A DNA stretch of 64,000 bases, taken from assembly GCA_017404065.1 (NCBI GenBank), contig JAFRDB010000128.1:63-64062 (forward strand), in the 5' to 3' direction. Origin of the DNA: Clostridia bacterium (GTDB lineage: Bacteria > Bacillota > Clostridia > UBA1381). The position numbers and the translations under genes were made by a program. Of this stretch, positions 12,120-64,000 are shown one piece after another (position 1 is the first letter of the stretch; the number at the start of each line of letters is the position of its first letter). The notes under the pieces were generated by a model. The model ran no database searches. It was not told where the DNA came from and saw nothing but the letters and a program-made list of their open reading frames with translations.

Positions 12120-12200
12120 CGATAAGCCTCCTAAAGCTAATTTTTTTATTTCTTACACCAATAGAATACTCTAAATCACGCTAAACGTCAATAGCTTTAT

Positions 12201-25955: not shown

Positions 25956-25968
25956 ATTTAGACACCCC

Positions 25969-27333: not shown

Positions 27334-27371
27334 TTTCAGCTGTCCCCCTATTGATCTGCATTATATTACAA

Positions 27372-27400
27372 ATTATAACACAGTAATACCTATTTGTCAA
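27372..27400 (-). promoter_or_regulatory. Promoter of the MBOAT-DHHW operon
   Basis: Minus strand: TTGACA (27395-27400), 17 nt, TATAAT (27372-27377). Confidence 0.55.
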
Positions 27401-27650
27401 TATATTCTCATAATTAGGCAAGATTAGTCATAATACATACAATATATTGGTAAATGATCACTTTAGGGTTTGGCACCCGCTTTATGAATTGATGCGGTTA
27501 ATTACCTCAGCACCTAATGCTCTACATATTATTTACAATATAATACCCGCCGTTTAATGCGATTCTTCCCATATTATCGGGATAGAACGCATAATACCGA
27601 CGGGTATTTTTAATGTCATGCATTATACTGTATATATTGCCGAAGCTGCA

Positions 27651-35403: not shown

Positions 35404-35450
35404 TTTGCATTTATCCTTCCTTTGATTTTTTTGGAAAAATCCCATAACTT

Positions 35451-35488
35451 CAATTGAATGGTAACAGCATCACTGTTACCATTCAATT
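35451..35488 (-). other. 16-bp perfect hairpin between the dockerin-protein gene and the SLH-protein gene (no U-tract)
   Basis: CAATTGAATGGTAACAG-CATCA-CTGTTACCATTCAATT. It may be a processing or stability element, or a weak terminator. Confidence 0.4.
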
Positions 35489-35506
35489 TAATTACCATTA
35501 ATAAAA

Positions 35507-36166
35507 TTATTCAACAACTATATCAATTGTAGAACCTGTGTTACCGATATTCTCTTCGAATTCAGCTATATATCTTGCAATGAAAACGCCATCCGATACG
35601 CCAACTTCCTGGTCATCATCAACGTCACCATAGACGAAATCAGCATCATCAGCTGTCTTAGCCTCTGCACCCGCATTACCGATATTCTCTTCAAATTCAG
35701 CTATATATCTTGCAACAAATACACCGTCCGATACACCGATCTCATCGTCATCATCAACGTCACCGATGTAAACAGTCTTTGTGTCCTTCTCGACCGGCTC
35801 GCCGCCTATAGTAAATGAAGCTGTCTTAACTGTGCCGTCGCCGCCGACACGGATATAATATGTACCGTCAACTATCTTGGATGCATCAAGCTTGATCTCG
35901 CTAAAGCCTTGGCTCTCATCATCCTGATCGATCTGGAAAATGTTAGCTTCTGCAACTGTGCCGTCTGTATCTACAACAAGCAGAGTCGTTGAATTCTCGG
36001 TTGACTTTACAGCACTATCAAGAGTGATAACACCGGTATCTGTGTCATACTTACCTGCAAAATCGCCGGAAACAGAAACCTCAGCTGCCATAGCGGAGAT
36101 AGCCATTGCTGCCGAAACAGCTGTTATAGCCGCTGTTGACAGCATGATTTTTGTGAATTTCTTCAT
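35507..36166 (-). CDS. Small secreted protein with C-terminal atypical (poly-Asp loop) dockerin
   Basis: ATG 36166 (MKKFTKIMLSTAAITAVSAAMAISAMA). The C-terminus holds two 24-residue segments, GDVDDDDEIGVSDGVFVARYIAEF and GDVDDDQEVGVSDGVFIARYIAEF, 46 aa apart. This matches the duplicated F-hand layout of dockerins (GD.N.DG.....D......Y). Confidence 0.6.
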   Translation of the reverse strand: MKKFTKIMLSTAAITAVSAAMAISAMAAEVSVSGDFAGKYDTDTGVITLDSAVKSTENSTTLLVVDTDGTVAEANIFQIDQDDESQGFSEIKLDASKIVDGTYYIRVGGDGTVKTASFTIGGEPVEKDTKTVYIGDVDDDDEIGVSDGVFVARYIAEFEENIGNAGAEAKTADDADFVYGDVDDDQEVGVSDGVFIARYIAEFEENIGNTGSTIDIVVE

Positions 36167-36265
36167 TGTTTTACCCCTTTTCTTTTTAGACTTGATTATG
36201 ATCTGCGAATATGCCAAAATTGCGGACCGTGGCACACTACGCAAATACTATATCCATATACCCGT

Positions 36266-36294
36266 ATTATAAACTATTCTCTTAAGAATTTCAA
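36266..36294 (-). promoter_or_regulatory. Promoter of the dockerin-protein gene
   Basis: Minus strand: TTGAAA (36289-36294), 17 nt, TATAAT (36266-36271). Confidence 0.5.
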
Positions 36295-36370
36295 TATATT
36301 TTTAATATTTATTTTTATTTTAGCATTTTGCACAAAAAATCACCGACAATTTTATATAAGATTATTATAC

Positions 36371-36396
36371 AAAAACCGGGCGGTTTTACCGCCCGG
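36371..36396 (-). terminator. Rho-independent terminator after the 956-aa protein gene
   Basis: Minus strand: CCGGGCGG-TAAAA-CCGCCCGG, followed by T5. Confidence 0.75.
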
Positions 36397-36419
36397 AAAT
36401 TTGGTTATATTATCTCAAT

Positions 36420-39290
36420 TCAGTCGTTTTTATACGGTGTCTGATCCTGATCCCACAGATACTCATTATCGCCAATGGTTTCAGCCGACGGGTCTGCTAC
36501 AGTTGTCACTGTAACGCTCGTAAGAACGCCGTTCTCATCCTTCGTGAAGGAGTACTTATACCATGTTGTAGTAGTATCCGTCGAATTCGGGTTGATGTAT
36601 ACAACGCCGTTATCGATATACGGTGTCCCCTCTGCTGTGACATCGACACTTGTAATTCCTCTGTCATTGAGGTTTCTTGCCTCAATACCCTTTGCCTTTG
36701 CAGCTACCTCAAGCGTCTTTGACGGGTCTGACGGATCTATTCTGTAAACGGTGTAAACCGACTTGCCGCAGTGACCGTCGCTTGATACCGGTGTTTCTAT
36801 AACAACTCTGTACCATGTGCCGCAAACAAGGCTGCCCGAAAGCGTGCCGCCCTTATTGCCGCCTTTGTCTATGTAAGATGCGGTAGCTGTTCCGTTTTCA
36901 TTACCTGTGAGCACAAATGTCGCGCCTAATTTGTCACCATTAGTATTCTTTTCCGCTAATGAGAGCTTATCGCCCGCATTTACAAGAACATCATACACCA
37001 CGTATGTCGAATTGCCCTTCTGCTTCTCGTGATATGCGTTGATAGTGCCCGCAACAGCCGGCTTAGCCTCGCTGTGGTTGAGCTTGGTTTCCGGTGTGCC
37101 GTTTACTTCCGCAAACGCGTCTGTAACAGCTCTGCCGTCCTTTGCAACAAGGTCAATGTTTGAGCCTTCAACCTCTGATGCCGGCTCCGGTGTTGCGGCC
37201 GGCTCCGGTGTTACAACTGTCTCGATAAGGCTGTACTCCTTGGATGTTACAAATGATGCCATGTTATCAATATAAACATCACCTGTTACACTTGTTCCAA
37301 AGCTTGTAACACCCTTTTTATCAAGGCCTCTCGGTGAAAGACCTGTGAGCTGTGCTGCTACACCGGCTGCCTTTGACGGGTCAGCGGAGTCAATTCTGTA
37401 TACAGTATATGTAAGGTTGCCTGTTGTCGTTGTTGTAGCATCGCCGCCCTGCGGTACCTCAACAAGAACTCTGTACCATGTGCCATGGACAAGCTTCTCA
37501 GCCGCTGACGGCTGGCTGCCTGAGCTGCTTACAACCGCCGATACCGTAACAGCACCCGTAGCATCTGCTGATAGCGTCATTGTAGCCGCCTGTGAGTCGC
37601 CTTTATTACCATACGGTGTTATTGATATCTTTGAATCCGGTGTAAGATTTACATCGTATGCCGCATATATCGAGTTGCCTCTTGCTTTATCCGAATATGC
37701 GCCGATAGCCGTGTTGGCTGTTGACTTAGCCTTCTTAGCTTCGCTGTGGTTAAGTATCTCAGCCGTAGCCTCTATAGCTTCTGTCCAGTCCTCATCAAGG
37801 GATGTGCCCTTAGCAAGTGTCCATGCCGGATCTGCCTTCGTGCCTGTACCCTCAACGCTTGATGCCGCCTCCGGTGTTAATGTAGGAACCGGTGAAGGTG
37901 TAACCACCTCTACCTCGCCGCCGGTACCGATTGCTATGTTATCGACATACGATGTGTTCGGATCCCATGAAACAAGGCTCATCGTTGTGAGCGCTTTAAT
38001 ATCCGTTGTGATCTTACCTCTGCCTACTACAGTCTCTTCAGCACCTGTTACCGAATATGTACCTGTGCCCGACGCAAGATCAACATCGACCGTTGTGTGT
38101 ACCCATGCGCCTGTCTTACAGTTAACTCCGGCTTCTTCTCCGCGTTTTGTGATACCCTGCGTGAACAGACTGCCGAGATTATCCGAATTACTGCCGCTCA
38201 ACGCGCCGTCCGCGAATATGACCTTCAAGCGTCCGTTTGAGCCTACATAGATGTCATAGTCGATAACAATATGTGACTTACCGCTTGTCAAAGCCGAGAA
38301 ATCAAATGTCGCATAGCCGTATGCGGTGTTTTTACTTGAGGTCTGATCAACCTTATATACTATTGAAGTGTTGTCGCCTACTCCGCCTTCTACCGCAGCA
38401 GCCTCAACGGTTGTATAAGCATCGTTCTTTGCAACGGTTACGCCTGCCGCCTCAAAATCAGTCGTATCAAAGTCTATCATTACGGTGTCTGTTATCTCTG
38501 CCGCCGCCGGCGCATCTGTTTCTTCAGGCTCGGGGTCAAATGAATGATCCTCTGCCGCAGGTATGGTTGCTTCTGCCCCGTCTGCCGACGAAAGGATAAC
38601 AAGCTCATCTATGCATACTGTTGCATATACTCCATTGTCGCACTTTGTGTCCGCGTCAAACGGGAGCGGTCTTATGATCGACGGCACGGCAGAAACCACT
38701 TCTCCAACTTGTGTTCCGTCAACATATATCGTTGTAGAACTATCAGCTACTACAAGCTTGACCGTTTTCCACTCATCTGTTCCGAGTGTATCTGATGTGA
38801 TCGTGCCAACAGCACCCAAATCAAGCGCTGCCGTGCTTTTCTCTCCCTCCGTAACCTTCGCACTAAAGCTTATTACAAGAGATTCTCCTTCATCTGCAGC
38901 ATATTGATCCAAGCCCGTTATCTGCGGTTTGCATCTGCTTTGGAAACGATTCTGAGGCATTATAAGATATTTATCCGTTTCGTCTTTCTCATTGATCGTA
39001 ATTGCTGCGGTATCATCGCCTCTGTCGCCATCAAATCCAACAGTCAGATTATCAAGTGTGCGGCTCGCAGGGCTATTGAATATCCACTGCCAGTCCGGAT
39101 TGCCCTCTACCGAGGTATAGTCCGAGCCTGACTGAACCGCAAAAACAGTACCTTCCTCGGTTTTTGCCGAAGTCGGATAACCGTTAAAGCTATTTGAATA
39201 CAGCACAGTATCGCCTTCAGCCATCGCGACAGAAGGCACCAATGACGCTGCCATAGCCGCCGCACTTAGTAATGAAATAATTTTTCTCAT
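36420..39290 (-). CDS. 956-aa secreted protein with four LamG/concanavalin-like lectin-type modules separated by Pro/Glu/Thr linkers. No recognisable anchor.
   Basis: Signal peptide MRKIISLLSAAAMAASLVPSVAMA. Each module ends with a similar strand (VCIDELVILS, SYVDNIAIG, VYIDNMASF, PYIDNGVVY). Modules 3 and 4 are clear paralogues (LNHSEAK...GNS.Y..YDV.....K.S......G...GAT..L......G....S.......G.......LV.GTWYRV..E.P......YTVYRID.SDPSK). WKTVKLVVADSSTTIYVDGTQVGEV is LamG-like. Confidence 0.55.
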   Translation of the reverse strand: MRKIISLLSAAAMAASLVPSVAMAEGDTVLYSNSFNGYPTSAKTEEGTVFAVQSGSDYTSVEGNPDWQWIFNSPASRTLDNLTVGFDGDRGDDTAAITINEKDETDKYLIMPQNRFQSRCKPQITGLDQYAADEGESLVISFSAKVTEGEKSTAALDLGAVGTITSDTLGTDEWKTVKLVVADSSTTIYVDGTQVGEVVSAVPSIIRPLPFDADTKCDNGVYATVCIDELVILSSADGAEATIPAAEDHSFDPEPEETDAPAAAEITDTVMIDFDTTDFEAAGVTVAKNDAYTTVEAAAVEGGVGDNTSIVYKVDQTSSKNTAYGYATFDFSALTSGKSHIVIDYDIYVGSNGRLKVIFADGALSGSNSDNLGSLFTQGITKRGEEAGVNCKTGAWVHTTVDVDLASGTGTYSVTGAEETVVGRGKITTDIKALTTMSLVSWDPNTSYVDNIAIGTGGEVEVVTPSPVPTLTPEAASSVEGTGTKADPAWTLAKGTSLDEDWTEAIEATAEILNHSEAKKAKSTANTAIGAYSDKARGNSIYAAYDVNLTPDSKISITPYGNKGDSQAATMTLSADATGAVTVSAVVSSSGSQPSAAEKLVHGTWYRVLVEVPQGGDATTTTTGNLTYTVYRIDSADPSKAAGVAAQLTGLSPRGLDKKGVTSFGTSVTGDVYIDNMASFVTSKEYSLIETVVTPEPAATPEPASEVEGSNIDLVAKDGRAVTDAFAEVNGTPETKLNHSEAKPAVAGTINAYHEKQKGNSTYVVYDVLVNAGDKLSLAEKNTNGDKLGATFVLTGNENGTATASYIDKGGNKGGTLSGSLVCGTWYRVVIETPVSSDGHCGKSVYTVYRIDPSDPSKTLEVAAKAKGIEARNLNDRGITSVDVTAEGTPYIDNGVVYINPNSTDTTTTWYKYSFTKDENGVLTSVTVTTVADPSAETIGDNEYLWDQDQTPYKND

Positions 39291-52243: not shown

Positions 52244-53488
52244 TCAACGACCGCACATTTGTGCTGCCTCGTTAATTATTCGTCTTGCCTCACCCGCAAG
52301 ATACAGTGAACCGCATACGCAGACAAGTCCGTGTTTGCCAGCCACACCGACAGCGGTCTTTATCGCTTTTTTGATATCAGGCTCGGCAACACACTCCGTT
52401 TCAGTATTATCCGCAACGCGTTTTATTTCCGCCGCCGTAAGGGCGCGATCCATCTTAAGCTCTGTTGCAATAATACAGCTTGCTGCCGAGGCTATGGTGT
52501 GTATACATATATCATAGCTCTTGTCGCGCATCATGGCAAGCACAAGAACAATATCCCTTTCCTCTGTGGCAAGGGATGTTTTTAATTCGCGCATAGCGTC
52601 AAGGTTATGCGCGCCGTCTATTATGATATTGTCCGCAACACGCTCGTACCGCGCCGGATGCTTCACATTCCTGAAGCCCTCGTCAAGCGCTGTTCCGGAT
52701 ATTTCCCATCCCCTGCGCCGGAGCGCGTTCACCGTTTCAATAACAGCTGCGCCGTTTTCCGCCTGGTATGTGCCGCCTAACGCTATATGGTAGGTCCATG
52801 TTTTGTATCCGAACTTTCCCTTCATCGGCACCGGCTTATCACAGAAGGTCAATCTGCCGCCGCCGTTTCTTTCAAATTCAGTTACGATAACCGATCTCAC
52901 GCGCTCATTCGGAACGCTGACGATCTCACACCCGCGCTTTATTATCCCGCACTTTTCCGCGGCTATCTCCTCTATTGTGTTGCCCAGATACTGTGTATGA
53001 TCCATACCTATACGAGTAAGAACAGCCACCTCCGGCGCGTCAATTACGTTAGTCGCGTCAAGCCGTCCGCCCATACCCGTTTCAAGCACCACTATGTCGC
53101 AGTGCTCATCGGCAAAATATTTCATCGCAACCGCGGTTATGAACGCAAACTCCGATACGATATCCTTCCCCATCAGCTCCGCCGCTTCTGTCACATATTC
53201 AGCCAACGCTTTATCGGGGATAAGCTCGTTGTTTATCTGTATCCGCTCATTGAACACCTCTATAAACGGGGATGTGAACAGTCCCGTTTTATATCCGGCA
53301 CGCCGGAGCGTTTCGGCAAGCATGGCGCACACCGAACCCTTGCCGTTAGTCCCTGCAACATGGACGAATTTCAGCTCCTTCTGCGGATCGCCGAGCCTTT
53401 CGAGCAGCTTCGCAAGCTTTTCATTACCCAAAGGCCGAACAAATCTCGGTATTGCATGGATAAATTCTATGGCTTCGTTATAATTCAT
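52244..53488 (-). CDS. folC: Folylpolyglutamate synthase / dihydrofolate synthase
   Basis: HVAGTNGKGS P-loop and Mur-ligase family layout. 414 aa. Confidence 0.85.
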   Translation of the reverse strand: MNYNEAIEFIHAIPRFVRPLGNEKLAKLLERLGDPQKELKFVHVAGTNGKGSVCAMLAETLRRAGYKTGLFTSPFIEVFNERIQINNELIPDKALAEYVTEAAELMGKDIVSEFAFITAVAMKYFADEHCDIVVLETGMGGRLDATNVIDAPEVAVLTRIGMDHTQYLGNTIEEIAAEKCGIIKRGCEIVSVPNERVRSVIVTEFERNGGGRLTFCDKPVPMKGKFGYKTWTYHIALGGTYQAENGAAVIETVNALRRRGWEISGTALDEGFRNVKHPARYERVADNIIIDGAHNLDAMRELKTSLATEERDIVLVLAMMRDKSYDICIHTIASAASCIIATELKMDRALTAAEIKRVADNTETECVAEPDIKKAIKTAVGVAGKHGLVCVCGSLYLAGEARRIINEAAQMCGR

Positions 53489-54372
53489 ACATCTATTCCA
53501 TAGCTGCGCATAGCAGCCTTTAATCTTTCAAGGTTTTGCGGCGTCATGCCGACAAGCGGCAGCCTTACATCGCCCGCACTCATGCCCATGAGGTTCATCG
53601 CCTCCTTGACAGGGATCGGGTTCACCTCAATAAAGAGCGCATTTATAAGCTCCAGCATTTTAAGCTGCATATCCCTGCCCTTTATATAATCACCGTTAAG
53701 ACAGCTCTCGCACAGCTCATGCGTCTCCTTTGGCAGTATGTTTGCAACAACGCTTATAACACCCTTTGCTCCTATGCTCATAAGCGGAACTATCATATTG
53801 TCATTGCCTGAATACATGTAAAGCTCCGGCACCTCCGCCGCGACGCGCGCAGCATAGCTGATGTTGCCGCTTGCTTCCTTTACCGCGACAATATTTTCTG
53901 TCTCCGCAAGTCTTTTAAGTGTTTCCACCGCTATATTCACACCGGTTCTTGACGGTATATTATAGAGTATTACCGGTATTGATATTGATCGCGCAATCGC
54001 ATTGTAATGCTCATAAAGCCCCTTTTGAGTGGTCTTATTGTAGTATGGCGTAACGCACAGCACCCCGTCCGCGCCATACTCCTCCGCCTCCTTGGAAAAC
54101 CATATAGCATGAGAGGTATCGTTGCTGCCTGTACCCGCGATTATGGGGATTCTGCCTGCCGCCTTCTCTACGGTGTATTTTAATATATCGAGATGGTCAC
54201 GGTCGCCGAGTGCCGGCGCCTCGCCGGTGGTTCCGCATATAATGATAGCGTCTGTATTCTCAGCAATATGCATTTCTATAAGCTGACCGAGACTTTCAAA
54301 ATTTATCTTATCGCCGTCAAACGGAGTAACGAGCGCAACGCCCGAACCGATGAAGGGTAATCTTTTTGCCAT
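53485..54372 (-). CDS. dapA: 4-hydroxy-tetrahydrodipicolinate synthase
   Basis: ATG 54372 (MAKRLPFIGSGVALVTPF...) has a GGAGG RBS. Motifs GTTGE, YYNK and the active-site Lys region (VAVKEASG). Confidence 0.9.
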   Translation of the reverse strand: MAKRLPFIGSGVALVTPFDGDKINFESLGQLIEMHIAENTDAIIICGTTGEAPALGDRDHLDILKYTVEKAAGRIPIIAGTGSNDTSHAIWFSKEAEEYGADGVLCVTPYYNKTTQKGLYEHYNAIARSISIPVILYNIPSRTGVNIAVETLKRLAETENIVAVKEASGNISYAARVAAEVPELYMYSGNDNMIVPLMSIGAKGVISVVANILPKETHELCESCLNGDYIKGRDMQLKMLELINALFIEVNPIPVKEAMNLMGMSAGDVRLPLVGMTPQNLERLKAAMRSYGIDV

Positions 54373-54510
54373 GATAACTACCTCCTGTTTACTGATATTA
54401 TATATCATTCTATGCGCCTTGTCAATATTTGATTAACATAAAAGCCAACGGCTTTGCTGTTTCCTTCGGGGAAAATGCCTTAAACACAATGACATTTCAT
54501 GTAAATGCGT

Positions 54511-54813
54511 TTATTTCATATTGTCTATTACATCTGTTATAAGCTTTTTCTGTTCTTGGTTTAATTTGTTATATTTAGTCAAAAATGTTTTTTGTTCCGA
54601 TGATAGGCAGTCATCCTCGGTATAATCAAAAAATTCGGCCATACTTATCCCAAAGCCGCGGCAGATCATTTCAAGCGTAGGTATCGTAGGCAAATTATTT
54701 CTTGCAAACATATTTGCAAGCGTGGACTGTGGCAGCCCGGATTTAACGGATAGCTTGTAGACGCTCCAATCATACTGCTCCAAAAGCTCTCTTATTCTTT
54801 GTAAAGCATCCAT
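54511..54813 (-). CDS. XRE-family helix-turn-helix transcriptional regulator, divergent from the cohesin operon
   Basis: ATG 54813 (MDALQRIRELLEQYDWSVYKLSVKSGLPQSTLANMFARNN...) has a GAGGAGGTG RBS. About 100 aa. Confidence 0.75.
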   Translation of the reverse strand: MDALQRIRELLEQYDWSVYKLSVKSGLPQSTLANMFARNNLPTIPTLEMICRGFGISMAEFFDYTEDDCLSSEQKTFLTKYNKLNQEQKKLITDVIDNMK

Positions 54814-54880
54814 CTTTGTCACCTCCTCGTATAATAGTATTTTACTATACAAACGAGAATTATGATATTCTACAAAAGGG

Positions 54881-54909
54881 TTGACAATAAATCGCAAATG
54901 TGATATAGT
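54881..54909 (+). promoter_or_regulatory. Candidate promoter of the cohesin/dockerin operon
   Basis: TTGACA (54881-86), 17 nt, TATAGT (54904-09), about 135 nt upstream of ATG 55043. Confidence 0.5.
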
Positions 54910-55042
54910 TATTGCACAAATCAAATATATTGATGAGGTAAACGAAAATAAAAAATAGGTGTAATTTTTTTGTTAACATAAAGCGGACCATGTTATACAA
55001 AGATCACCGTTTTTTATTAATAACAGAAAGGAAGGTAAAAAA

Positions 55043-58000
55043 ATGAACAAAAAGATTTTAGCAATACTGCTGAGCCTTGCGATGCCAGGCTCTGCGGTAA
55101 ATTTCCCTGTTTTTGCAGAGAACGATGAAACGGAAGCAGCGGAGGTAACGGTTGCATCCGAGGTGACGGACGCAACAGAGGAAACAGAGTCCGATGCCGA
55201 GGCTGAGGAAGCGTTGGCGATTGCCGGCGAGGTGACGGAGGTCGCAAGCGGCACCTGCGGCGTGGAAGAAAACAAGGATAACGTCACATGGCTCCTTGAC
55301 AGCGAGGGCACGCTGACGGTAAGCGGTACCGGTGATATGGCGAATGAGTATTATCCTTGGTTAGATTACAGAGACCAAATAACAAAGGTCATTGTCACCG
55401 ATGGAGTCACAAGAGTAGGTAGCCATGCGTTTTCTTATTACAAGTATATTAGTAGTGGTAATCAGCCTAGATATTATTACCCCAACTTAAGAACATTGAT
55501 CCTATCGGACAGTGTACAATCAATAGGAGCTGAAGCTTTTAGGGGCTCCGGACTGTTGAATGTGGAGCTGGGAAACGGACTGGTCACAATAGAAGACGGA
55601 GCATTTTGCGTCTGTTCCCTGTTGCAGAGTGTGAACCTTCCCGATACTCTCAAGACTATTAGAAATTATGTATTTGAAGACTGTTCCTCTCTAAAAGAAG
55701 TAGACATACCCGATTCCGTAACTTCGTTAGGTAATTATTTATTCCGAAGCTGTATCGCGCTTGAAAGCGTTAAGCTACCGAATAAAATAATAACAGTTCC
55801 GGAAAGCTCATTCCAAAACTGCGTCAACCTCATCAGTATCGGTATACCTGCAAATGTAAGCGTTATAGGCAATTACGCATTTTCCGGGTGCACAAAACTT
55901 GAAACCGCAAATATACCGGTATACGTCAGAGCTATAGGAAGCTATGCCTTTTCCGGCTGCTCTGCACTTACAAACATCACGATTCCGAACCATGTTAAGG
56001 CTATAGGCGACCACGCCTTTGAAAACTGCGTGTCCGCCGAAAGCATCACACTCGGAAATGACGTGAGAACCATAGAGCCGTACGCATTTGACGGAGATGT
56101 AAATGTAAAAACGCTGTATCTGCCGGAATATTTGACATCGGTAGGTGATAGAGCGTTTTACAATAACAGCAGTCTCGAAAAGATATATTTTGCCGGAAGC
56201 GCAGAGCAATGGAATAATATAAGTGTGGGCGCGAACAACATGTATTTTTCATTCTGTGAGGATATAGAATATAATTCGGATTATTACTGGGAGGATGTAA
56301 TACCGGAGGAGCCCACAGACGCTGAAATTATCGCAAGCGGCACCTGCGGCAGCGAAGGGTCAAATGTCAAGTGGTCGCTCGATGATTACGGAAAGCTGAC
56401 GATAAGCGGCAAATGGGATATGGCGGATGAATATTCCCCTTGGTTAGATTACAGAGACCAAATAACAAAGGTCATTGTCACCGATGGAGTCACAAAAGTA
56501 GGTAACCATGCGTTTTCTTACTACAAGTATATTAGTAGTGGTAATCAGCCTAGATATTATTACCCCAACTTAAGAACATTGATCCTATCGGACAGCGTAC
56601 AATCAATAGGAGCTGAAGCTTTTAGGGGCTCGGGACTGTTGAATGTGGAGCTGGGAAACGGACTGACATCAATAGAAGCAGGAGCATTTTGCGTCTGTTC
56701 CCTGTTGCAGAGTGTGAACCTTCCCGATACACTCAAGACTATTGGAAATAATGTATTTGACACCTGTTCTTCTCTAAGAGAAGCAGAGATACCCGATTCC
56801 GTAACTTCGATAGGTAATTATTTATTCTCCGGCTGTACTTCGCTTGAAAGCGTTAAGCTACCGAATAAAATAATAACAGTTCCGGAATATATCTTTTTCG
56901 GCTGTGTCAATCTCGTCAGCATAGATATACCTTCAAATGTAAGCGTCATAGGCGATTACGCATTTTCCGGGTGCTCAAAACTTGAAACCGCAAACATACC
57001 GGAATCTGTAACATCGATAGGCGGATATGCATTCAACGGCTGTTCGAAGCTTAAGTCTGTAAATATCCCCGAATCGGTAACATCAATAGGAGAATATGCC
57101 TTTAACGGCTGTTCCAAGCTCGGAAGCATCACTGTTCCCGACTATGTAACATCCATACCTGCATACGCCTTTAGCGAATGCTCGGAGCTGGAAAGAGTCA
57201 TAATCGGTGAGAATACAGCAAGCATAGGATACAGCGCGTTTTATAATGATGCAAAATTAAGCGGTCTGTATATTCCTGTTAAGGTGACAAGCATAGGTTC
57301 CAACGCGTTTTATAATGCGGAAAGCCTTGAAAAGATATATTACGGCGGAACGGAAGAACAGTGGAACGCAATAAACATAGGCAGCAACAATAATTATCTG
57401 AAGTATGCCGAAGTTATATACGGCGCATCGCCTGAGGATGTGCCGGAAGTTGTACAACCCACACCGACAGCAGAGCCCACAACGGCACCTACGGCAACGC
57501 CGACAGCGACGCCTACAACAGCTCCAACGGCAACGCCGACAGCAGTGCCTACAGAAGCTCCGACGTCAGCACCGACAACGGCTCCGACAGCGACGCCTAC
57601 GGTACCTCCCGCAACGGACGGGGCTAAGATCAAGGTGTCATCCGCCAAGGTAGCTCCGGGCAAAACAGTTTCCGTTACGGTCGAGCTTTCGGAGAACAAG
57701 GGCTTTGCAAATCTCGGCTTACAGATAGGCTTTGATGCTTCCGCCCTTACGCTTATATCGGTATCAAATAATACAAGCGTAGGCGCGACATATACGGGAG
57801 CGCAGAGTATAACGGTAAATCCGTACAATATGGGATGGGACAGCACGAGCAACAATACATACAACGGTACTCTTGCAACGCTTACCTTCGAGGTGAACGA
57901 TGACGCTCCTGACGGCACATATCCTATCAGCGTAAGCTATTACAGGGGCAAAAACGGAAATTACTCGGACGGCGAGGACGTAAACTATGACGAGGATTTC

Positions 58001-58243
58001 AAGCCACTTAACCTGAATTACACAAACGGAGCTATAACCGTTTCAAGACACATACCCGGCGATATTAACGGCGACGGGAAGGTGAACAATCAGGACGGAA
58101 CGTTCCTGCTTCGTCATCTCGCCGGATGGAATGTCAGTGTTGATGAAACGGCTCTTGATATAACCGGTGACGACAAGGTAAACAACCAGGACGGAACCAT
58201 ACTTCTACGCTATCTCGCCGGTTGGTCGGTAACCATCAACTAA
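55043..58243 (+). CDS. 1066-aa secreted adaptor-scaffoldin-like protein: two BspA-type leucine-rich-repeat blocks, Thr/Pro linker, one cohesin, C-terminal dockerin
   Basis: Signal peptide MNKKILAILLSLAMPGSAVNFPVFA. The LRR_5-like units repeat the pattern IP..V..IG..AF..C..L..... about 20 times. The linker is PTPTAEPTTAPTATPTATP... The cohesin is KVAPGKTVSVTVELSENKGFANLGLQIGFDASALTL...GTLATLTFEV (about 57620-58045). The dockerin is GDINGDGKVNNQDGTFLLRHLAGW...DITGDDKVNNQDGTILLRYLAGW (58052-58240). Confidence 0.75.
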   Translation: MNKKILAILLSLAMPGSAVNFPVFAENDETEAAEVTVASEVTDATEETESDAEAEEALAIAGEVTEVASGTCGVEENKDNVTWLLDSEGTLTVSGTGDMANEYYPWLDYRDQITKVIVTDGVTRVGSHAFSYYKYISSGNQPRYYYPNLRTLILSDSVQSIGAEAFRGSGLLNVELGNGLVTIEDGAFCVCSLLQSVNLPDTLKTIRNYVFEDCSSLKEVDIPDSVTSLGNYLFRSCIALESVKLPNKIITVPESSFQNCVNLISIGIPANVSVIGNYAFSGCTKLETANIPVYVRAIGSYAFSGCSALTNITIPNHVKAIGDHAFENCVSAESITLGNDVRTIEPYAFDGDVNVKTLYLPEYLTSVGDRAFYNNSSLEKIYFAGSAEQWNNISVGANNMYFSFCEDIEYNSDYYWEDVIPEEPTDAEIIASGTCGSEGSNVKWSLDDYGKLTISGKWDMADEYSPWLDYRDQITKVIVTDGVTKVGNHAFSYYKYISSGNQPRYYYPNLRTLILSDSVQSIGAEAFRGSGLLNVELGNGLTSIEAGAFCVCSLLQSVNLPDTLKTIGNNVFDTCSSLREAEIPDSVTSIGNYLFSGCTSLESVKLPNKIITVPEYIFFGCVNLVSIDIPSNVSVIGDYAFSGCSKLETANIPESVTSIGGYAFNGCSKLKSVNIPESVTSIGEYAFNGCSKLGSITVPDYVTSIPAYAFSECSELERVIIGENTASIGYSAFYNDAKLSGLYIPVKVTSIGSNAFYNAESLEKIYYGGTEEQWNAINIGSNNNYLKYAEVIYGASPEDVPEVVQPTPTAEPTTAPTATPTATPTTAPTATPTAVPTEAPTSAPTTAPTATPTVPPATDGAKIKVSSAKVAPGKTVSVTVELSENKGFANLGLQIGFDASALTLISVSNNTSVGATYTGAQSITVNPYNMGWDSTSNNTYNGTLATLTFEVNDDAPDGTYPISVSYYRGKNGNYSDGEDVNYDEDFKPLNLNYTNGAITVSRHIPGDINGDGKVNNQDGTFLLRHLAGWNVSVDETALDITGDDKVNNQDGTILLRYLAGWSVTIN
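55355..56748. repeat. Intragenic duplication (offset 1083 bp) with a ~310-bp almost identical tract
   Basis: 55355-55665 and 56438-56748 differ at only a handful of positions by eye (CCTTGGTTAGATTACAGAGACCAAATAACAAAGGTCATTGTCACCGATGGAGTCACAA...). The flanking parts of the two LRR blocks are much more diverged. Confidence 0.85.
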
Positions 58244-58252
58244 GGAGGTCGT

Positions 58253-59563
58253 ATGAAAAGGACGATCTCGATCGGCGTGATATGCGCCATACTGCTTTCT
58301 GTTTGCGGTTTTAGTGTGAATGCCGCAGGGATGACCGTCAGCGCAGGAAATGAATCCTGCGCCGCCGGCGGGTCGGTTTCGATACCGATAACGCTTGCGG
58401 GCAATACGGGCTTTGCAAATCTCGGCATAGAGGTAGAATATGACAGCTCGGTATTAACACTTAAAAACGTCACAGCCGGCGACACGGGCGCAACCTATAC
58501 GGCGGCGCAGAGCATAACGGCAAATCCGTATAACATGGGCTGGGACAGCACAAGCGATAACAGCTTTAACGGCACTCTTGCAACGCTTGAATTTGATGTG
58601 TCGGATACCGCTTCGGGCAATTATCCCATACAGATAAGCTATTATAAGGGACGTGACGGCAGCTACGAGGACGGCTCGGATGTCAACTATGACGAGAATT
58701 TCTCCCCGCTTGGTCTCTCGTATAAGAACGGCTCTATCACCGTCAGCGGCAGCCCGACTGCTTCACCAACCGCTTCACCGACCACTGAGCCAACAATTAT
58801 GCCAACCGCTTCACCGACCGCTGAGCCTACCACTGAGCCTACCGCCAAGCCTTCGGGAGCGATTATAAAGGCGGGTGCGGTCTCCGGCTTTGTCGGGGAC
58901 ACTGTAGCTGTTCCGATAACGCTCACAAGCAACACCGGCTTTGCCAACCTCGGAATAGAGGTCGGTTATGACAGCAGCGTTATGACATTAAAAAAAGCCG
59001 AGTCAGCACAGACCGGCGCGACTTATACGGCGGCGCAGAGCATCACGGCAAACCCGTACAACATGGGCTGGGACAGCACAAGCAATAATACATATAACGG
59101 CACTCTTGCAACGCTTGAATTCGAGATAGCGGGAGATGCAACTTCGGGAATCTACCCGATAACGGTCAGCTATTATAAGGGACGTGACGGTAATTATTCG
59201 GACGGCACTGATGTAAACTATGATGAGAACTTCGCTCCGCTTAATCTTTCATACGTTGCCGGCTATGTGACTATATCCGACACAGAAGCATCCGGAAAGA
59301 GCATTTCAATCAGCAACGTTCAAAATGACGGGATTCTTTCCTTTAATGCAACCCTGAAGTCGGATGAAAGCATTACGGGAGTCGCAATAGCGGCGGTATA
59401 TGACGCAGACGGTACGCTCATTGCCGTAAAACAATACACCGCCTCATCGGAAATAGCGTTCTCATTCTCTGATATTCAAAACGCCGCAATGGTTAAGGTG
59501 TTCTGGTGGGGCAGCATGAACGGTATGTCGTCTCAGGCGTATTCAGAGAAAATCACATTGTAA
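58253..59563 (+). CDS. 436-aa secreted scaffoldin-like protein: cohesin - Pro/Thr linker - cohesin - 92-aa C-terminal module
   Basis: Signal peptide MKRTISIGVICAILLSVCGFSVNA. Two cohesins are paralogous to the one in the upstream gene (GNTGFANLGIEVEYDSSVLTL...NPYNMGWDSTS...GTLATLEFDV; SNTGFANLGIEVGYDSSVMTL...). GGAGG RBS. Confidence 0.75.
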   Translation: MKRTISIGVICAILLSVCGFSVNAAGMTVSAGNESCAAGGSVSIPITLAGNTGFANLGIEVEYDSSVLTLKNVTAGDTGATYTAAQSITANPYNMGWDSTSDNSFNGTLATLEFDVSDTASGNYPIQISYYKGRDGSYEDGSDVNYDENFSPLGLSYKNGSITVSGSPTASPTASPTTEPTIMPTASPTAEPTTEPTAKPSGAIIKAGAVSGFVGDTVAVPITLTSNTGFANLGIEVGYDSSVMTLKKAESAQTGATYTAAQSITANPYNMGWDSTSNNTYNGTLATLEFEIAGDATSGIYPITVSYYKGRDGNYSDGTDVNYDENFAPLNLSYVAGYVTISDTEASGKSISISNVQNDGILSFNATLKSDESITGVAIAAVYDADGTLIAVKQYTASSEIAFSFSDIQNAAMVKVFWWGSMNGMSSQAYSEKITL

Positions 59564-59602
59564 ATACTGTTTTAACAATAAAATACATATGAGGGGTAAA
59601 AT

Positions 59603-62600
59603 ATGCTTAGAAAAAGAATTTCGGCCGCTTTAGCGGCTATTATAACGCTGGCATCCTGCGGAACAGCATTTGCGGTTTATGATGCGGATGTTATTCCCGT
59701 ACAAACGGAGATACAGGATGAACTTAGTATTGCGGAGTCACGACCGCAGACATCAAAATTCAGCTACAATCTTGACGGTGAGGAGCTTACTGTATCGCTC
59801 AACGGTCAGACAATAAAGAACACTACCGATGAGGACATAAACGTTTTTATTGCCGTTTATGAGGCTGATATCCTCTGTAAAGCTAAGCGCTATACTGTAA
59901 GCGCGGATTATCCGGAGGTCAACTTAAAGGATTGGAAGACCACGTATTCCGGTGACAAGGACGCGCTTAAGGTAAAGGCGTTCATCTGGACGGCGGACGG
60001 TAATTGCAAACCGATCGAGGAAGCATCCGAGCTTTCTGATATTTCGGGGACAGTTTACAAAGCGTTCGGCAGAGTGGTCGCCACGTCAACAGGCAGTAAC
60101 CTGCGACCGGGTGAGGTCATGTTCCAAATAGAACAGTCGGATGATTTTGACGGCAGGGAGATAAACAAAAGTCTCGATAATATAGAAACTATAACTGCTC
60201 AGACAGGAAGCACAAACGCAAAGGATATGCTGTTTATCTACTCCGAAGCATTTATTGCAAAGGCTGTTGACGGTACATTCGCGATAGTTTCCATAGAGAG
60301 CTGCGATCCGTCACAGACAGTCACGTTTGCGGCAAAGGATGTTGCCGATGATGACGCGATCATCGGCATAGACTACAGCGGCAACAGAAAGCTACCGGTA
60401 TACGAGAGCGATATATCATCGTCAACAATAAAATATGATCTTGCTGACGATGTTAAGCTCTATGTAAACGGCGTTGAAGATATGACATCAGCTTCTCTGA
60501 ATGAAAAGATCGCTGACTACATTCTTGCTAACCCAACAGGTGCGGTTCAGCTCATTGACCAGACAGCTGTCGGTTCAACATCAAAAGACGGTAAGTATGA
60601 CAAGATCATGGTTACATTCTATGTTGACGCTGTAGTTGACTATGTAACCGCAACATCATCAACGGCAAGAATCTATTTCAAGAACTCACAGATCAACGCC
60701 ATGAGAATGGAGTGGGATCCTGAGGATAAGGATATCGAGGTTAAGTTCACAAAGGACGGCGCTGAGATAGCTTACACAGACCTTGCTGAGTATGACGTTC
60801 TTTCGATCAAGTACAACATGGTTGAACAAGGCGTAGCAAGTGACGCTCTTACAGATTGTGACTTCTATGAGGTATTGGTTTCACGGAATGTTGTTGAGGG
60901 CAGCATAATAGGTAAGGATTTTTACGATCAAACTGTTAAGGTTAACGGTAACGACTATAACCTCATATACAATGACGGCGTATACAGCACAAAGACATGG
61001 TCAATGACAAGCACATACGATTGTGAGCTTGGCACATATTATAAGCTCTTCCTTGATGCTTTCGGTTATGTTGCACATTTCGACGAGCTTGAATTGCCGA
61101 AGGACTACGGCGTGATCGTTGCTATGTACACAAACAGCGGCGATGATTATCCGACAGTAAGACTTGTTACCGCTGACGGTGAGATCGTAAGCTATGAGTG
61201 TACGGATTCTTTGGAGGCTCACAGGTTCTATAACTATGCAGTAAACGGCAATCCTTACGGTTCGGCATCTTACACATCGTTCAACAAGAACACCCCGGCT
61301 GTAAAGGACAACATACTTGCAGGTAACACAGTCTGCACATATAAGCTCACAGATGGCAAGATCAGGTTTGATCAGGCATTTAATACCGGCTACGGCGGCG
61401 CAGACCTTGAATATAAAGCATCTTCTTCTAAAATAGGATCATATTCAATTGATGAAAACACAAGGATCATTGATATGGACGAATATATGCATAACGGTTC
61501 TGACAAAGTCTTAACGCTTTCTGCTGCCGATTTTGATGATAAGGCTGCATATACAGCATACTTGTTTGACAAGAACAGTGACGGTGTTTACAGATTCGCT
61601 ATCGTATTTCATGGAGCCGTAGAAGGTATCTATGATGTTTACGGACAGGTTACCGACAACGCGCAAACAAGCTCAGACTATAAAGAAGACGAGATAGGTT
61701 TTGAAATAACAGATGATGATGAGCTTAACGGTAAGCATACAATGAATGTTGGAAAAACCGATGCGGCGGATATAATTGGCAAGTATTGTGAAGCAACGAT
61801 CATGGTGATGAAAAACGGTCGCATTAAGATCTTATCAATATCGCCCGAAGAAACAAATTACGGCGTGATTGTATCAATGTATCAGACCAGCGGCGATGAC
61901 TATCCCACGGTAAGACTTGTTACCGCTGACGGTGAGATCGTAAGCTATGAGTGTAAGGATATGACCGAGGCTACGATGTTCTATAACTATGCAGTAAACG
62001 GCAATCCTTACGGTTCGGCATCTTACACATCGTTCAACAAGAACGTTCCTACTGTAATGGACAACATTCTTGCAGGTAACACGGTCTGCACATATAAGCT
62101 CACAAACGGCAGGATCAGGTTCGATAATTCACTTTACGACAACGGCGGCACAGATCTTGAATATAAGGCATCGACATCGGAAATAGGCGCCTTCGCCATT
62201 GATGAAAACACAAGGATCATCGATATGGACGAGTATATGCATAACGGTTCTGACAAGGTCTCAACGCTTTCGGCTGCAGATTTTGAGGATGAGGCTGCAT
62301 ACACAGCATACTTGTTCGACAAGAACACCGACGGTGTTTACAGATTCGCTATCGTATTTCATGGAGCCGTAGAAGGTATCTATGACGTTTACGGACAGGT
62401 TACCGACAACGCGCAAACAAGCTCAAATTATAAAGAAGACGAGATAGGTTTTGAAATAACAGATGATGATGAGCTTAACGGTAAGCATACAATGAACGTC
62501 GGAAATACCGATGCGGCGGATATGATTGGCAAATATTGTGAAGCAACGATCCTGGTGATGAAAAACGGTCGCATTAAGATCTTATCAATATCGCCCGAAG

Positions 62601-63847
62601 AAACAAATTACGGTGTGATCGTTGCTATGTACAAAAGCAGCGGCGATGACTATCCCACGGTAAGACTTGTTACCGCAAACGGTGAGATTGTAAGCTATGA
62701 GTGTAAGGATATGACCGAAGCTAATAGGCTCTATAACTATGCTGTAAGCGGCAATCCTTACGGTTCGGCATCTTACACATCGTTCAACAAATACACCCCG
62801 ACGGTAAAGGCCAACATTCTTGCAGGCGACACAGTCTGCACATATAAGCTCGCAGACGGCAGAATCAGGTTCGATAATGCACTTTACGGCAACGGCGGTA
62901 CGGATCTTGAATATAATGCATCGACATCGGAAATAGGCGCATTTACCATTGACGAAAACACAAGGATCATCGATATGGACGAATATATGCATAACGGTTC
63001 TGACAAAGTCCCAACGCTTTCGGCTGCTGATTTTGAGGATGAGGCAATATACGATGCGTATTTCTTTGATAAGAACAATGACAGTGTTTACAATTTTGGT
63101 ATCGTATTTGAGGGCACATCGTCCATAAGACCCGAGAGCCGGCTTGCAGTTGTTAAGAAGGTAAACGGTCAGGCAGACACAAATGGTACAACAACATGGT
63201 CATACACGGTTCTTCGCGCAGGTGAGGAGGTTGAGGTTCGTATAGACGATTCCACAGCTCTGCTTCCTGAGGGTGCTGTAATTGCTTACATAGTTAACTC
63301 AGACGGTTATGTTGACAGCGATAGGCTGTATGTTCTCTACGAACCGGCATCAACATACTATTATAACCTTGAAACGATCCTTTCAAACAATGATTTCTGC
63401 GGCAGCCAGCTTGACAATGTTAATATGGTCACTGATTGGAACAAGAATCATGGCAAGTATGAGATCGCATACAATGGCAGGACATCATATTCAAAGGACG
63501 TATTTGCCTATGTGGGTATCGTATACAAGACGAACGGCAATCACCTTGAACTCTTCACAAAGAAGACCGGCAATGTATCAAGCACATTGACAGACATTGA
63601 GGATATCTCGCTTTCAGGCGCTACAGTATATCTGTATGACTATAACTATAAGTCAGGCAAGGGCGCAAGAGTAAGCGTTGCTACAGCTACTCAGAGCGAT
63701 TCTATCTACAACGTCACGTATGATGACGCTGACAAGACTCAGGTCAACTGGTATAAGGTAATCGATAATGATGCTACGCCTTTGCTCGCTTTCGTTAAGG
63801 AGGTTGACGGCGAAGCAACAGACGTGATCCTCTTCATTGCTAAGTGA
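59603..63847 (+). CDS. 1414-aa putative lipoprotein with ~250-aa tandem repeats. No recognised catalytic, SLH, LPXTG or dockerin module.
   Basis: The signal peptide carries a lipobox (AIITLASC|G). About 2.7 copies of a 250-aa unit are present (YGVIVAMY..SGDDYPTVRLVTADGEIVSYEC...IRFD...DLEYKAS.S.IG...IDENTRIIDMDEYMHNGSDKV.TLSAADF.D.AAYTAYLFDKN.DGVYRFAIVFHG...). GAGGGG RBS. Confidence 0.6.
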   Translation: MLRKRISAALAAIITLASCGTAFAVYDADVIPVQTEIQDELSIAESRPQTSKFSYNLDGEELTVSLNGQTIKNTTDEDINVFIAVYEADILCKAKRYTVSADYPEVNLKDWKTTYSGDKDALKVKAFIWTADGNCKPIEEASELSDISGTVYKAFGRVVATSTGSNLRPGEVMFQIEQSDDFDGREINKSLDNIETITAQTGSTNAKDMLFIYSEAFIAKAVDGTFAIVSIESCDPSQTVTFAAKDVADDDAIIGIDYSGNRKLPVYESDISSSTIKYDLADDVKLYVNGVEDMTSASLNEKIADYILANPTGAVQLIDQTAVGSTSKDGKYDKIMVTFYVDAVVDYVTATSSTARIYFKNSQINAMRMEWDPEDKDIEVKFTKDGAEIAYTDLAEYDVLSIKYNMVEQGVASDALTDCDFYEVLVSRNVVEGSIIGKDFYDQTVKVNGNDYNLIYNDGVYSTKTWSMTSTYDCELGTYYKLFLDAFGYVAHFDELELPKDYGVIVAMYTNSGDDYPTVRLVTADGEIVSYECTDSLEAHRFYNYAVNGNPYGSASYTSFNKNTPAVKDNILAGNTVCTYKLTDGKIRFDQAFNTGYGGADLEYKASSSKIGSYSIDENTRIIDMDEYMHNGSDKVLTLSAADFDDKAAYTAYLFDKNSDGVYRFAIVFHGAVEGIYDVYGQVTDNAQTSSDYKEDEIGFEITDDDELNGKHTMNVGKTDAADIIGKYCEATIMVMKNGRIKILSISPEETNYGVIVSMYQTSGDDYPTVRLVTADGEIVSYECKDMTEATMFYNYAVNGNPYGSASYTSFNKNVPTVMDNILAGNTVCTYKLTNGRIRFDNSLYDNGGTDLEYKASTSEIGAFAIDENTRIIDMDEYMHNGSDKVSTLSAADFEDEAAYTAYLFDKNTDGVYRFAIVFHGAVEGIYDVYGQVTDNAQTSSNYKEDEIGFEITDDDELNGKHTMNVGNTDAADMIGKYCEATILVMKNGRIKILSISPEETNYGVIVAMYKSSGDDYPTVRLVTANGEIVSYECKDMTEANRLYNYAVSGNPYGSASYTSFNKYTPTVKANILAGDTVCTYKLADGRIRFDNALYGNGGTDLEYNASTSEIGAFTIDENTRIIDMDEYMHNGSDKVPTLSAADFEDEAIYDAYFFDKNNDSVYNFGIVFEGTSSIRPESRLAVVKKVNGQADTNGTTTWSYTVLRAGEEVEVRIDDSTALLPEGAVIAYIVNSDGYVDSDRLYVLYEPASTYYYNLETILSNNDFCGSQLDNVNMVTDWNKNHGKYEIAYNGRTSYSKDVFAYVGIVYKTNGNHLELFTKKTGNVSSTLTDIEDISLSGATVYLYDYNYKSGKGARVSVATATQSDSIYNVTYDDADKTQVNWYKVIDNDATPLLAFVKEVDGEATDVILFIAK
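61106..63120. repeat. ~750-bp tandem repeats (2 full + 1 partial) inside the 1414-aa gene
   Basis: Repeat starts (TACGG[CT]GTGAT) lie at 61106, 61859 and 62609, giving periods of 753 and 750 bp. There are long runs of identical DNA between copies. Confidence 0.9.
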
Positions 63848-64000
63848 TTCTAAACCTATATAACACAAAAGTGGAGGGATTTCCGGTAGGTTAACAAGAA
63901 CAAAGCGCCTGAGGCGCATCAACTCCCCCTGACCCCCTCAATCTTGAGACCAGATAATAAAAGTCAAGAGCTAAAATGAAAAAATATAAATTTTTTTCAT

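Follow-up and report, generated by a model that had tools for sequence, protein, structure and literature searches.

A predicted non-enzymatic cohesin-dockerin cassette for the display of adhesin heads in uncultured gut Clostridia

Cohesin-dockerin pairs are chiefly known for holding together the enzyme complexes that degrade cellulose and starch. What, then, could they do in a locus where no enzyme is encoded with them? The question is raised by a 64-kb stretch of DNA, referred to here at its full length as the window, from the metagenome-assembled genome (MAG) of an uncultured Clostridia bacterium. Three genes follow one another on its plus strand, namely gene 1 (55043-58243; 1066 aa), gene 2 (58253-59563; 436 aa) and gene 3 (59603-63847; 1414 aa), and their products (MBQ3427703-05) fall into protein clusters of just 2-3 members each. 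In the database, MBQ3427703.1 is listed as a 'leucine-rich repeat protein' and each of the other two as a 'hypothetical protein'. A first-pass annotation had read the three genes as one operon encoding a non-enzymatic cohesin-dockerin assembly. The non-enzymatic character was borne out, with no catalytic or carbohydrate-binding module recognised in genes 1-3 by Pfam or NCBIfam; the three-gene functional unit was not. Instead, genes 1 and 2 appear to form a self-contained non-enzymatic cohesin-dockerin cassette that displays an adhesin on the cell surface, a reading to which we give a probability of roughly two in three. Cohesin and dockerin would here seemingly serve the display of binding heads only.

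Conservation and modules of the two-gene cassette

Two sets of loci were compared with the window. The first consisted of contigs encoding homologues of gene 2, and the second of 29 loci that a Coh-X profile recovered from one genome for each species. The loci were annotated with home-built hidden Markov models (HMMs) of the cohesin (Coh), the dockerin (Doc) and the C-terminal module of gene 2 (X), and they were not chosen on the upstream gene. The homologues of gene 2 comprise Coh-X proteins of ~250 aa and Coh-Coh-X proteins of ~400-414 aa, along with many proteins in which a head is followed by Coh-Doc. A gene for such a head-Coh-Doc protein lies directly upstream of the Coh(n)-X gene, on the same strand, in each of the dereplicated loci (24/24). 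The gap between the two measures 8-18 nt in 20 of these, and the small overlaps apparent in the other 4 come from open reading frame (ORF) starts called too far upstream. Judged from the sequences, the conserved unit is the pair of genes 1 and 2 and not the three-gene operon.

While the Coh-Doc tail stays constant, the heads vary between cassettes. Leucine-rich repeats (LRR) of the LRR_5 family are found in the window and in 4 of the 10 heads scanned, and other heads carry a C-type lectin, Big_2, GLUG, a ricin lectin with Amidase_6, Cu_amine_oxidN1 or a domain of unknown type. Among the ~12 cassette heads that were scanned or annotated, none is a carbohydrate-active enzyme (CAZyme), one having Amidase_6. 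Three proteins of 1330-3316 aa (P0231, P0200 and P0296) contain ...Coh-Doc-Coh-X in one chain and represent three independent natural fusions, two of which (P0200 and P0296) additionally carry two N-terminal cohesins. As such fusions exist, the products of genes 1 and 2 are likely to act together. The closest relative of the cassette, at 74% identity (locus L043), is followed by a convergent metH-like gene. It was also observed that the head-Coh-Doc gene of locus L009 (1227-4244) is intact, encoding 1005 aa, and that its near-identical counterpart in L008 (6972-9986) is split within the cohesin into 867 + 125 aa; this split is a frameshift, due either to a pseudogene or to an assembly error.

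The protein encoded by gene 1 consists of a signal peptide, two LRR_5 blocks, a PT-rich linker, a cohesin and a dockerin. Its N-terminus is signal-peptide-like (MNKKILAILLSLAMPGSAVNFPVFA). Against the curated cut-offs of Pfam (27.7 bits for LRR_5, 24.1 for Cohesin and 22.9 for Dockerin_1), LRR_5 (PF13306) scored 559 bits (E=9e-171) in six stretches, Cohesin (PF00963) 44.7 bits and Dockerin_1 (PF00404) 37.0 bits; in gene 2, Cohesin scored 68.6 bits in two stretches. The modules first proposed from the sequence, two LRR blocks with a cohesin and a dockerin in gene 1 and two cohesins in gene 2, all pass these thresholds. The two BspA-type LRR_5 blocks (55250-57427, plus strand; about aa 70-425 and 430-795) share 65% identity across 365 aa, and the underlying DNA forms direct repeats at a spacing of 1083 nt, with a 300-nt stretch that is 90% identical. 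They are the product of a recent tandem duplication. LRR_5 blocks within a secreted protein, the mark of BspA-type LRR adhesins, are found in gene 1, and the HupY/LrrG adhesin model of NCBIfam matches it partially, with 176 bits against an equivalog cut-off of 1250 bits.

The head-type (H) cohesin of gene 1 (57626-58042, plus strand; aa 862-1000) is recognised both by Pfam and by the home-built HMM. It is followed by a type-I-like dockerin (58055-58237, plus strand; aa 1005-1065) with two calcium-loop/helix repeats, DINGDGKVNNQDG... and DITGDDKVNNQDG..., which are identical at 19 of 23 positions. The motif LLRxLAGW is present in both helices of this dockerin, as is LLRYLAGW in both helices across the loci. 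In the PDB, solved type-I dockerins were matched at E=2e-7. The junction of cohesin and dockerin spans only 4-5 residues (RHIPG in gene 1), a length that is fixed in 30 of 35 cassette sequences. Two of the features by which a cohesin-dockerin system is known, cohesins recognised by profile and a dockerin with two calcium-binding repeats, are therefore present.

The protein encoded by gene 2 is a secreted Coh-PT-Coh-X protein of the anchor type, a member of the Coh-X/Coh-Coh-X family. Its two anchor-type (A) cohesins (58331-59275, plus strand; aa 27-164 and 205-341) are separated by a PT linker (aa 165-203) and match solved cohesins, including the ScaB cohesin 4ums (E=4e-5) and 6kgc. No SLH, LPXTG, transmembrane or lipobox feature was found in gene 2; similarly, its retrieved homologues contain no SLH by Pfam and no LPXTG in their C-termini. 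The first-pass annotation had taken gene 2 to be devoid of an anchor, and had noted its C-terminal module, given there as 92 aa, without considering it as one. This X module (59273-59560, plus strand; aa 341-436, the last 96 residues) behaves like a general terminal surface-attachment module.

X is confidently modelled as a seven-strand beta-sandwich resembling immunoglobulin (Ig) and FN3 domains (AlphaFold2 pLDDT 91.8), and it carries the invariant signature G...Y...KV(M/F)WW. No consistent match came from comparing 35 X modules with Pfam, in which X has no family, and Foldseek against the PDB returned generic Ig/FN3 folds only (best E=4e-3, TM about 0.5). An exhaustive profile search over 1.84 billion representative proteins placed X in 932 clusters at E<=1e-3 and in 202 at E<=1e-10. 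Among the top matches, X lies no more than 12 aa from the C-terminus in 122 of its 158 occurrences, near the N-terminus in 24 and internally in 12. Signal-peptide-like N-termini are found in 90 of the 108 full-length carriers, to none of which any source gives a name. The passengers of X include LRR_5 (in direct fusion), GLUG, Big_7, CHAP-ricin-Big_3, an S8 protease-lectin and a Laminin_G-metallophosphatase. Such passengers are of surface type and are associated with SLH or sortase anchoring. Because of this position and these passengers, we infer that X may be a general terminal surface-attachment module.

Proposed display on the cell surface and its alternatives

According to the display reading, the products of genes 1 and 2 would both be exported via Sec signal peptides, and the Coh-PT-Coh-X protein of gene 2 would be kept at the cell surface by its C-terminal X. 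Each of its two A cohesins would take up one gene 1 protein by the symmetric, type-I-like dockerin of the latter, and each anchor could present up to two BspA-type LRR heads, which may bind a ligand on the host, a food particle or a partner cell. The H cohesin of gene 1, with its rigid junction, would brace the dockerin in the manner of the X module of XDoc dyads; alternatively, it would provide another docking site by which chains could be extended, as in Amy4 of Ruminococcus bromii. Gene 3 stands outside the cassette by ancestry, an X-like module having replaced an SLH triad and one internal segment having been triplicated.

The cohesins themselves bear on these roles. The H cohesins share 49-100% identity (mostly at least 60%) with the nearest H cohesin of another locus, and only 42-64% with the A cohesins of their own locus. 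The cohesin of gene 1, for instance, shares 79% identity with its H counterpart in L012, as against 57-61% with the cohesins of gene 2. Concerted evolution of the cohesins within a locus, with one shared specificity, was considered and discarded, as H and A cohesins form separate clades. From this separation, the two appear to be functionally differentiated, and the H cohesin could act as a dockerin brace or as a second docking site. In about ten loci, a third cohesin gene follows Coh-X (L010 at 11231-12223, L021, L022, L023, L025, L026, L027, L034 and L038/L039). Its cohesin is 24-30% identical to the head cohesin of its own locus in most of them and 38-47% in L038/L039, and the third gene of L010 carries a Cu_amine_oxidN1 domain. 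With H and A, this makes three old classes of cohesin. The third gene is absent from the window, where no hidden cohesin of its type was found, nor any cohesin in the Cu_amine_oxidN1 and SLH proteins.

The alternative that survives best is an extension of the display reading, in which the dockerin plugs into the cohesin of the next subunit. The result would be a fibre resembling a pilus, held together non-covalently and bearing LRR heads along its length, and gene 2 (Coh-Coh-X) would be the base nucleating two such fibres. Every displayed protein indeed has its own cohesin beside the dockerin, and the conservation of the head cohesin between loci (60-100% identity) points to a selected function. 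The resemblance of the gene 1 cohesin to those of gene 2 is also in line with a fibre, as is the report that Amy4 of R. bromii binds its own dockerin and runs as a species of >250 kDa (PMC4611034). However, in every locus the head cohesins belong to a clade apart from that of the anchor cohesins, a separation that points to another partner or role, and the fixed cohesin-dockerin junction resembles a rigid structural dyad. Such a fibre is possible, if well short of probable.

A different view would take X as a spacer or an oligomerisation domain of the Ig type. The complex of the gene 1 and gene 2 products would then be shed and would cross-link particles or cells, as cell-free cellulosomes do. 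The want of any classical anchor signal in gene 2 agrees with this, as do the generic matches of X. Nevertheless, X strongly favours the extreme C-terminus in hundreds of otherwise unrelated secreted proteins, and an X-like module replaces the SLH anchor in the family of gene 3, as described below. Because of this C-terminal preference and the SLH substitution, an attachment role fits X better than that of a spacer, and a shed complex is unlikely.

It can also be asked whether the cassette is an accessory adhesin travelling as cargo on integrative or conjugative elements and promoting cell-cell contact in transfer. The cassette of L006/L013 is flanked by relaxase/integrase genes on one side and by helicase/methylase/restriction genes on the other, that of L010 is surrounded by genes for TnpV, an integrase, a ParM-like protein, a relaxase and a resolvase, and cassettes that are otherwise similar differ by swapped heads. 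In the window, by contrast, it adjoins the housekeeping genes dapA and folC, with no mobile-element gene nearby and an unremarkable G+C content; L008/L009 and L043 are likewise set in chromosomal housekeeping contexts, and gene 2 had no match among 72,556 records of plasmids or 50,697 of phages. As a general account, mobile cargo is quite unlikely. For the two loci themselves, the relaxase, integrase, TnpV/TnpW, ParM-like, resolvase and restriction-modification genes around the cassettes (L006: 2569-5322 and 11776-21245; L010: 3992-6669 and 12460-21215) suggest carriage on integrative or mobilisable elements. One of these two cassettes has a C-type lectin head and one a Big_2/GLUG head.

A bolder proposal, which we consider distinctly speculative, goes beyond the display reading on three points. 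X would be a new class of Gram-positive surface-attachment domain, interchangeable with SLH in function and employed in uncultured gut Clostridia by protein families numbering in the hundreds; the cassette would be a plug-and-play and sometimes mobile adhesin cartridge; and the rigid Coh-Doc dyads would polymerise into pilus-like fibres of LRR or lectin heads.

Several observations weigh against the display reading itself. All carriers of the cassette are MAGs from the gut or rumen, assigned to uncultured Clostridia/Oscillospiraceae. X matches generic Ig/FN3 folds alone, and the case for anchoring is drawn from its position and from domain-swap logic; it could also serve as a spacer or as a protein-protein module. 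Its relationship to the N-terminal module of gene 3 reaches a probability of just 86.7%. The H and A cohesins form separate clades, either of which could hold the partner of the dockerin. Finally, the divergent third cohesin gene of many cassettes is not covered by the display model.

What appears to be new is the cassette itself, tight and conserved, the rigid dyad of cohesin and dockerin joined to exchangeable heads of a non-enzymatic kind, and the X-terminated anchor, all of them in uncultured gut Clostridia only. No description of the cassette or of X was found in the literature, the coverage of which was incomplete, so an earlier description is possible. If the display reading is true, cohesin and dockerin would have a role in adhesion and colonisation besides that in nutrient acquisition, and X, with its 932 protein clusters, would be a candidate for a new wall or S-layer anchor. 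Protein engineers would, moreover, gain a natural, minimal and orthogonal pair for surface display.

Gene 3 and the rest of the window

Gene 3 had been described as a protein without recognised domains. This holds for Pfam and NCBIfam, where nothing significant was found, and phmmer gave no match in the PDB; the protein nevertheless belongs to a family of SLH proteins. Its homologues are mostly of ~1000 aa with an N-terminal SLH region, PF00395 being found in 33 of the 39 homologue clusters listed. The ~770-aa body of these relatives aligns to aa 152-671 and 1000-1414 of gene 3 with 43-70% identity, and the SLH-type relatives align only from aa 129-152 onward. No SLH triad was found in gene 3 by Pfam, and its residues 1-151 stand where the relatives have theirs. 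Of the features of an S-layer-type protein, gene 3 thus shows the homologous body and lacks the N-terminal SLH triad. By homology, it is a secreted paralogue, without SLH, of S-layer-type proteins that do bear SLH, and the 1414-aa 'hypothetical protein' can be re-annotated as an S-layer-type protein derivative.

In place of the triad, gene 3 has an X-like N-terminal module (59675-60052, plus strand; aa 25-150). The first-pass annotation had proposed that genes 2 and 3 share a module, and the proposal is moderately supported, by the comparison of profiles (hhalign probability 86.7%, E=4e-6, 70 columns) and hardly by direct BLASTP, where the two proteins reach only E=0.025. The N-terminal module is common to five SLH-less relatives of gene 3 (P0016, P0018, P0032, P0040 and P0048), and in a sixth, P0049, the N-terminal region was aligned by BLAST only. 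An X-type attachment like that proposed for gene 2 probably keeps the product of gene 3 at the surface.

The body of gene 3 contains three tandem repeats of 250 aa (61067-63316, plus strand; R1 aa 489-738, R2 aa 739-988, R3 aa 989-1238), a claim of the earlier reading that was confirmed in all three copies. At the DNA level, the copies lie at 61106-61686, 61859-62436 and 62609-63186, in register and at a spacing of 750/753 nt. They are 86-89% identical, the third decaying to 68%, and among the protein repeats R2 is 85% and R3 67% identical to R1. Such a period exceeds the maximum of 500 of Tandem Repeats Finder, and the repeats were found by a direct-repeat search. The relatives carry a single copy of the triplicated segment.

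Gene 3 had also been put forward as a lipoprotein. A lipobox-like L-A-S-C is indeed present in its signal peptide (aa 16-19), but the cysteine is absent in the closest relative, P0016, and the AFA| signal peptidase I site that comes after it is common to gene 3, P0016 and the SLH-type relatives; on these sequences, lipidation is doubtful. The body of P0017, which is 65-70% identical to gene 3, was modelled as a chain of beta-rich domains (pLDDT 85.8, pTM 0.49). For this 780-aa body model, Foldseek against the PDB and BFVD returned only spurious whole-chain matches with a TM of about 0.1 (DDB1 and LEF-3). When the family profile was compared with the PDB, only the SLH part of the relatives was matched and the body was not.

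No cohesin or dockerin gene was found beside any of the six SLH-less relatives. That gene 3 might be a conserved third gene of the cassette was considered and rejected, genes of its type being absent from every other cassette. P0016 has a TTGACA/TATAAT promoter of its own. Since the SLH-less relatives stand alone and the other cassettes do without gene 3, its position next to the cassette is taken to be lineage-specific, although in the window it is probably co-transcribed with genes 1 and 2. Two SLH-type relatives (L041, 5756-11018; L042, 5490-11021) were seen to be single genes directly downstream of cdaA (diadenylate cyclase)-ybbR. They are preceded by a non-coding leader of ~430 nt and lie in housekeeping neighbourhoods, and this synteny is kept in two distant MAGs. 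The plan of SLH plus beta-domains, together with this context, suggests that the SLH-type relatives are the S-layer-type protein of the lineage.

Elsewhere in the window, three adjacent surface-protein genes lie on the minus strand at 33289-39290. The first (33289-35445) encodes an SLH protein with three SLH repeats matching Sap, its SLH region being the only part that matches solved structures, and with two N-terminal repeats of ~180 aa that belong to no Pfam family. Earlier regarded as a cohesin-like anchor, it yielded no cohesin in Pfam at E<=1 or with the family-specific cohesin HMM. The second (35507-36244; 219-245 aa) contains a duplicated GDVDDD(D/Q)E(I/V)GVSDGVF(V/I)ARYIAEFEENIGN motif (GDVDDD...ARYIAEF), whose dockerin-like match of 18-21 bits stays below the Pfam cut-off and whose sequence is unlike the cassette dockerins. 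The third (36420-39290; 956 aa) has internal repeats and no Pfam domain. The first two may constitute a second, divergent dockerin/receptor pair, without a link to genes 1-3. The architecture first proposed for the locus, in which this SLH protein receives the gene 1 dockerin, the cohesins of genes 1 and 2 present further proteins such as the 35507-36244 product, and gene 3 is a lipoprotein partner, is very unlikely: an SLH protein with repeats and, beside it, a protein with a weak dockerin-like duplication do lie about 20 kb away, and gene 3 does have the LASC as well as an X-like module that it shares with gene 2, but the SLH protein has no detectable cohesin, the neighbouring dockerin is sub-threshold and of another kind, the cassettes of 24 other loci do without such neighbours, the relatives of gene 3 are never beside cohesin genes and the lipobox cysteine is not conserved.

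The basic layout of the locus was found as first described, with the ORFs, the intergenic gaps of 9 nt (genes 1 and 2) and 39 nt (genes 2 and 3), the promoter and the divergent XRE regulator all in place. A plausible ribosome-binding site (Shine-Dalgarno) precedes each of genes 1, 2 and 3. The predicted promoter (54881-54909, plus strand) is near-consensus, of the sigma-70 type with an extended -10, TTGACA-17-TG-TATAGT; it matches 11 of 12 consensus positions with the TG present, lies 134 nt upstream of gene 1 and is predicted from this consensus match alone. Neither gap contains a flagged terminator-like site, and the sole plus-strand terminator-like match in the region is weak and lies inside the signal-peptide coding region of gene 3 (59656-59675). 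A GC-rich hairpin, GCGCCTGAGGCGC, was noted 3' of gene 3 at 63905-63917, without a plus-strand T-run, and the source contigs, 64.1-64.8 kb long, stop some hundreds of bases beyond gene 3.

The XRE/Cro-C1-type helix-turn-helix (HTH) regulator (54511-54813, minus strand) has 100 aa when read from the ATG at 54813, which is supported by GGAGGTG upstream; its mechanical ORF is longer (54511-54924), with a TTG start at 54924. Pfam assigns to it HTH_26 (34.7 bits) and HTH_3 (31.7 bits), as expected of a Cro/C1-type HTH. It is not a conserved partner of the operon, being absent next to related loci and not homologous to the HTH genes adjoining them. The idea of a conserved regulator of gene 3 was set aside as well: a divergent HTH gene also precedes P0018, yet the two proteins are unrelated beyond the HTH. 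On the other side of the regulator, and pointing away from it, a perfect 12/12 sigma-70 consensus (TTGACA-17-TATAAT) was noted on the minus strand at 54397-54425, at the ATG listed for the dapA-like gene (53485-54408) and immediately upstream of it. As its -10 hexamer overlaps this ATG, the true start of the gene is probably downstream (cf. the 295-aa cluster members). Farther away on the minus strand (23754-28832), genes for a DHHW/SGNH-DUF4358 protein (764 aa), an MBOAT O-acyltransferase (454 aa) and a LytR-CpsA-Psr ligase (393 aa) stand together. This looks like a cluster for cell-wall polymer O-acylation and attachment, and could be relevant to the polymer bound by the surface modules.

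Comparison with known systems

By analogy, the cassette would work like a cellulosome or an amylosome in that cohesin and dockerin are paired for assembly at the surface. Such systems are otherwise recognised by dockerin-borne CAZymes, of which none was found in genes 1-3, within the 64-kb window, and by an anchoring scaffoldin with SLH or LPXTG, in place of which gene 2 and its relatives end in X. In agreement with the first-pass annotation, the cassette is not orthologous to a characterised sca or cip cluster, the PDB matches being generic cohesins and dockerins and no description having been found in the literature.

Gene 3 finds its counterpart in Sap of Bacillus anthracis, which has an N-terminal SLH triad and a beta-domain assembly region. 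Its relatives similarly have a signal peptide, an SLH region matching that of Sap and a ~770-aa beta-rich chain. Gene 3 differs in having no SLH, and its body has no detectable similarity in sequence or fold to Sap or to solved S-layer proteins. The head of gene 1, in turn, is like that of BspA-like LRR_5 proteins, from which it would differ in being attached through a cohesin-dockerin link and not by a direct anchor.

The tail of gene 1 recalls the XDoc dyads of type II/III, known from CipA of Clostridium thermocellum (XDocII-SdbA) and CttA of R. flavefaciens (XDoc-CohE). In both arrangements, a beta-sandwich module sits directly upstream of the dockerin, essentially without a linker, and the likeness suggests mechanical or structural support for the anchoring interaction. 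Here, however, the upstream module is a cohesin by profile and not an X module, and the dockerin is type-I-like and symmetric.

The cellulosome of R. flavefaciens, with its adaptors ScaA/ScaB/ScaC and its anchor ScaE, shares with the cassette the LRR-dockerin proteins, the adaptors combining cohesin and dockerin and a small dedicated cohesin protein for anchoring. LRR on dockerin proteins had first been thought unusual; 28 LRR modules are, in fact, known among the dockerin proteins of strain FD-1 (PMC2930009), and an LRR-dockerin protein is among the ligands of the wall-anchored Sca2 cohesin of R. bromii (PMC4611034). In contrast to the system of R. flavefaciens, the cassette has no CAZymes, no carbohydrate-binding modules, no sortase-anchored protein of the ScaE type and no large multi-cohesin scaffoldin, and is minimal, with a pairing of one to one or two to one.

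The closest published analogue is, in our comparison, the amylosome of R. bromii. Both are cohesin-dockerin systems of gut Clostridia outside cellulose degradation, and in both the displayed protein consists of a functional head, a cohesin and a C-terminal dockerin. The model there is Amy4/Sca1, a GH13-cohesin-dockerin protein with a cohesin that binds its own dockerin (PMC4611034). Anchoring at the surface falls to a small cohesin protein in the amylosome and, putatively, in the cassette; the likening of Amy4 and Sca2 to genes 1 and 2 follows their descriptions and not a comparison of sequences. The differences are equally clear. The heads of the cassettes are non-catalytic (LRR_5, lectins, Big_2 and GLUG) and not amylases, the anchor ends in X and not in a sortase signal, and head and anchor are encoded side by side in a tight, conserved two-gene cassette with a fixed cohesin-dockerin junction of 4-5 residues.

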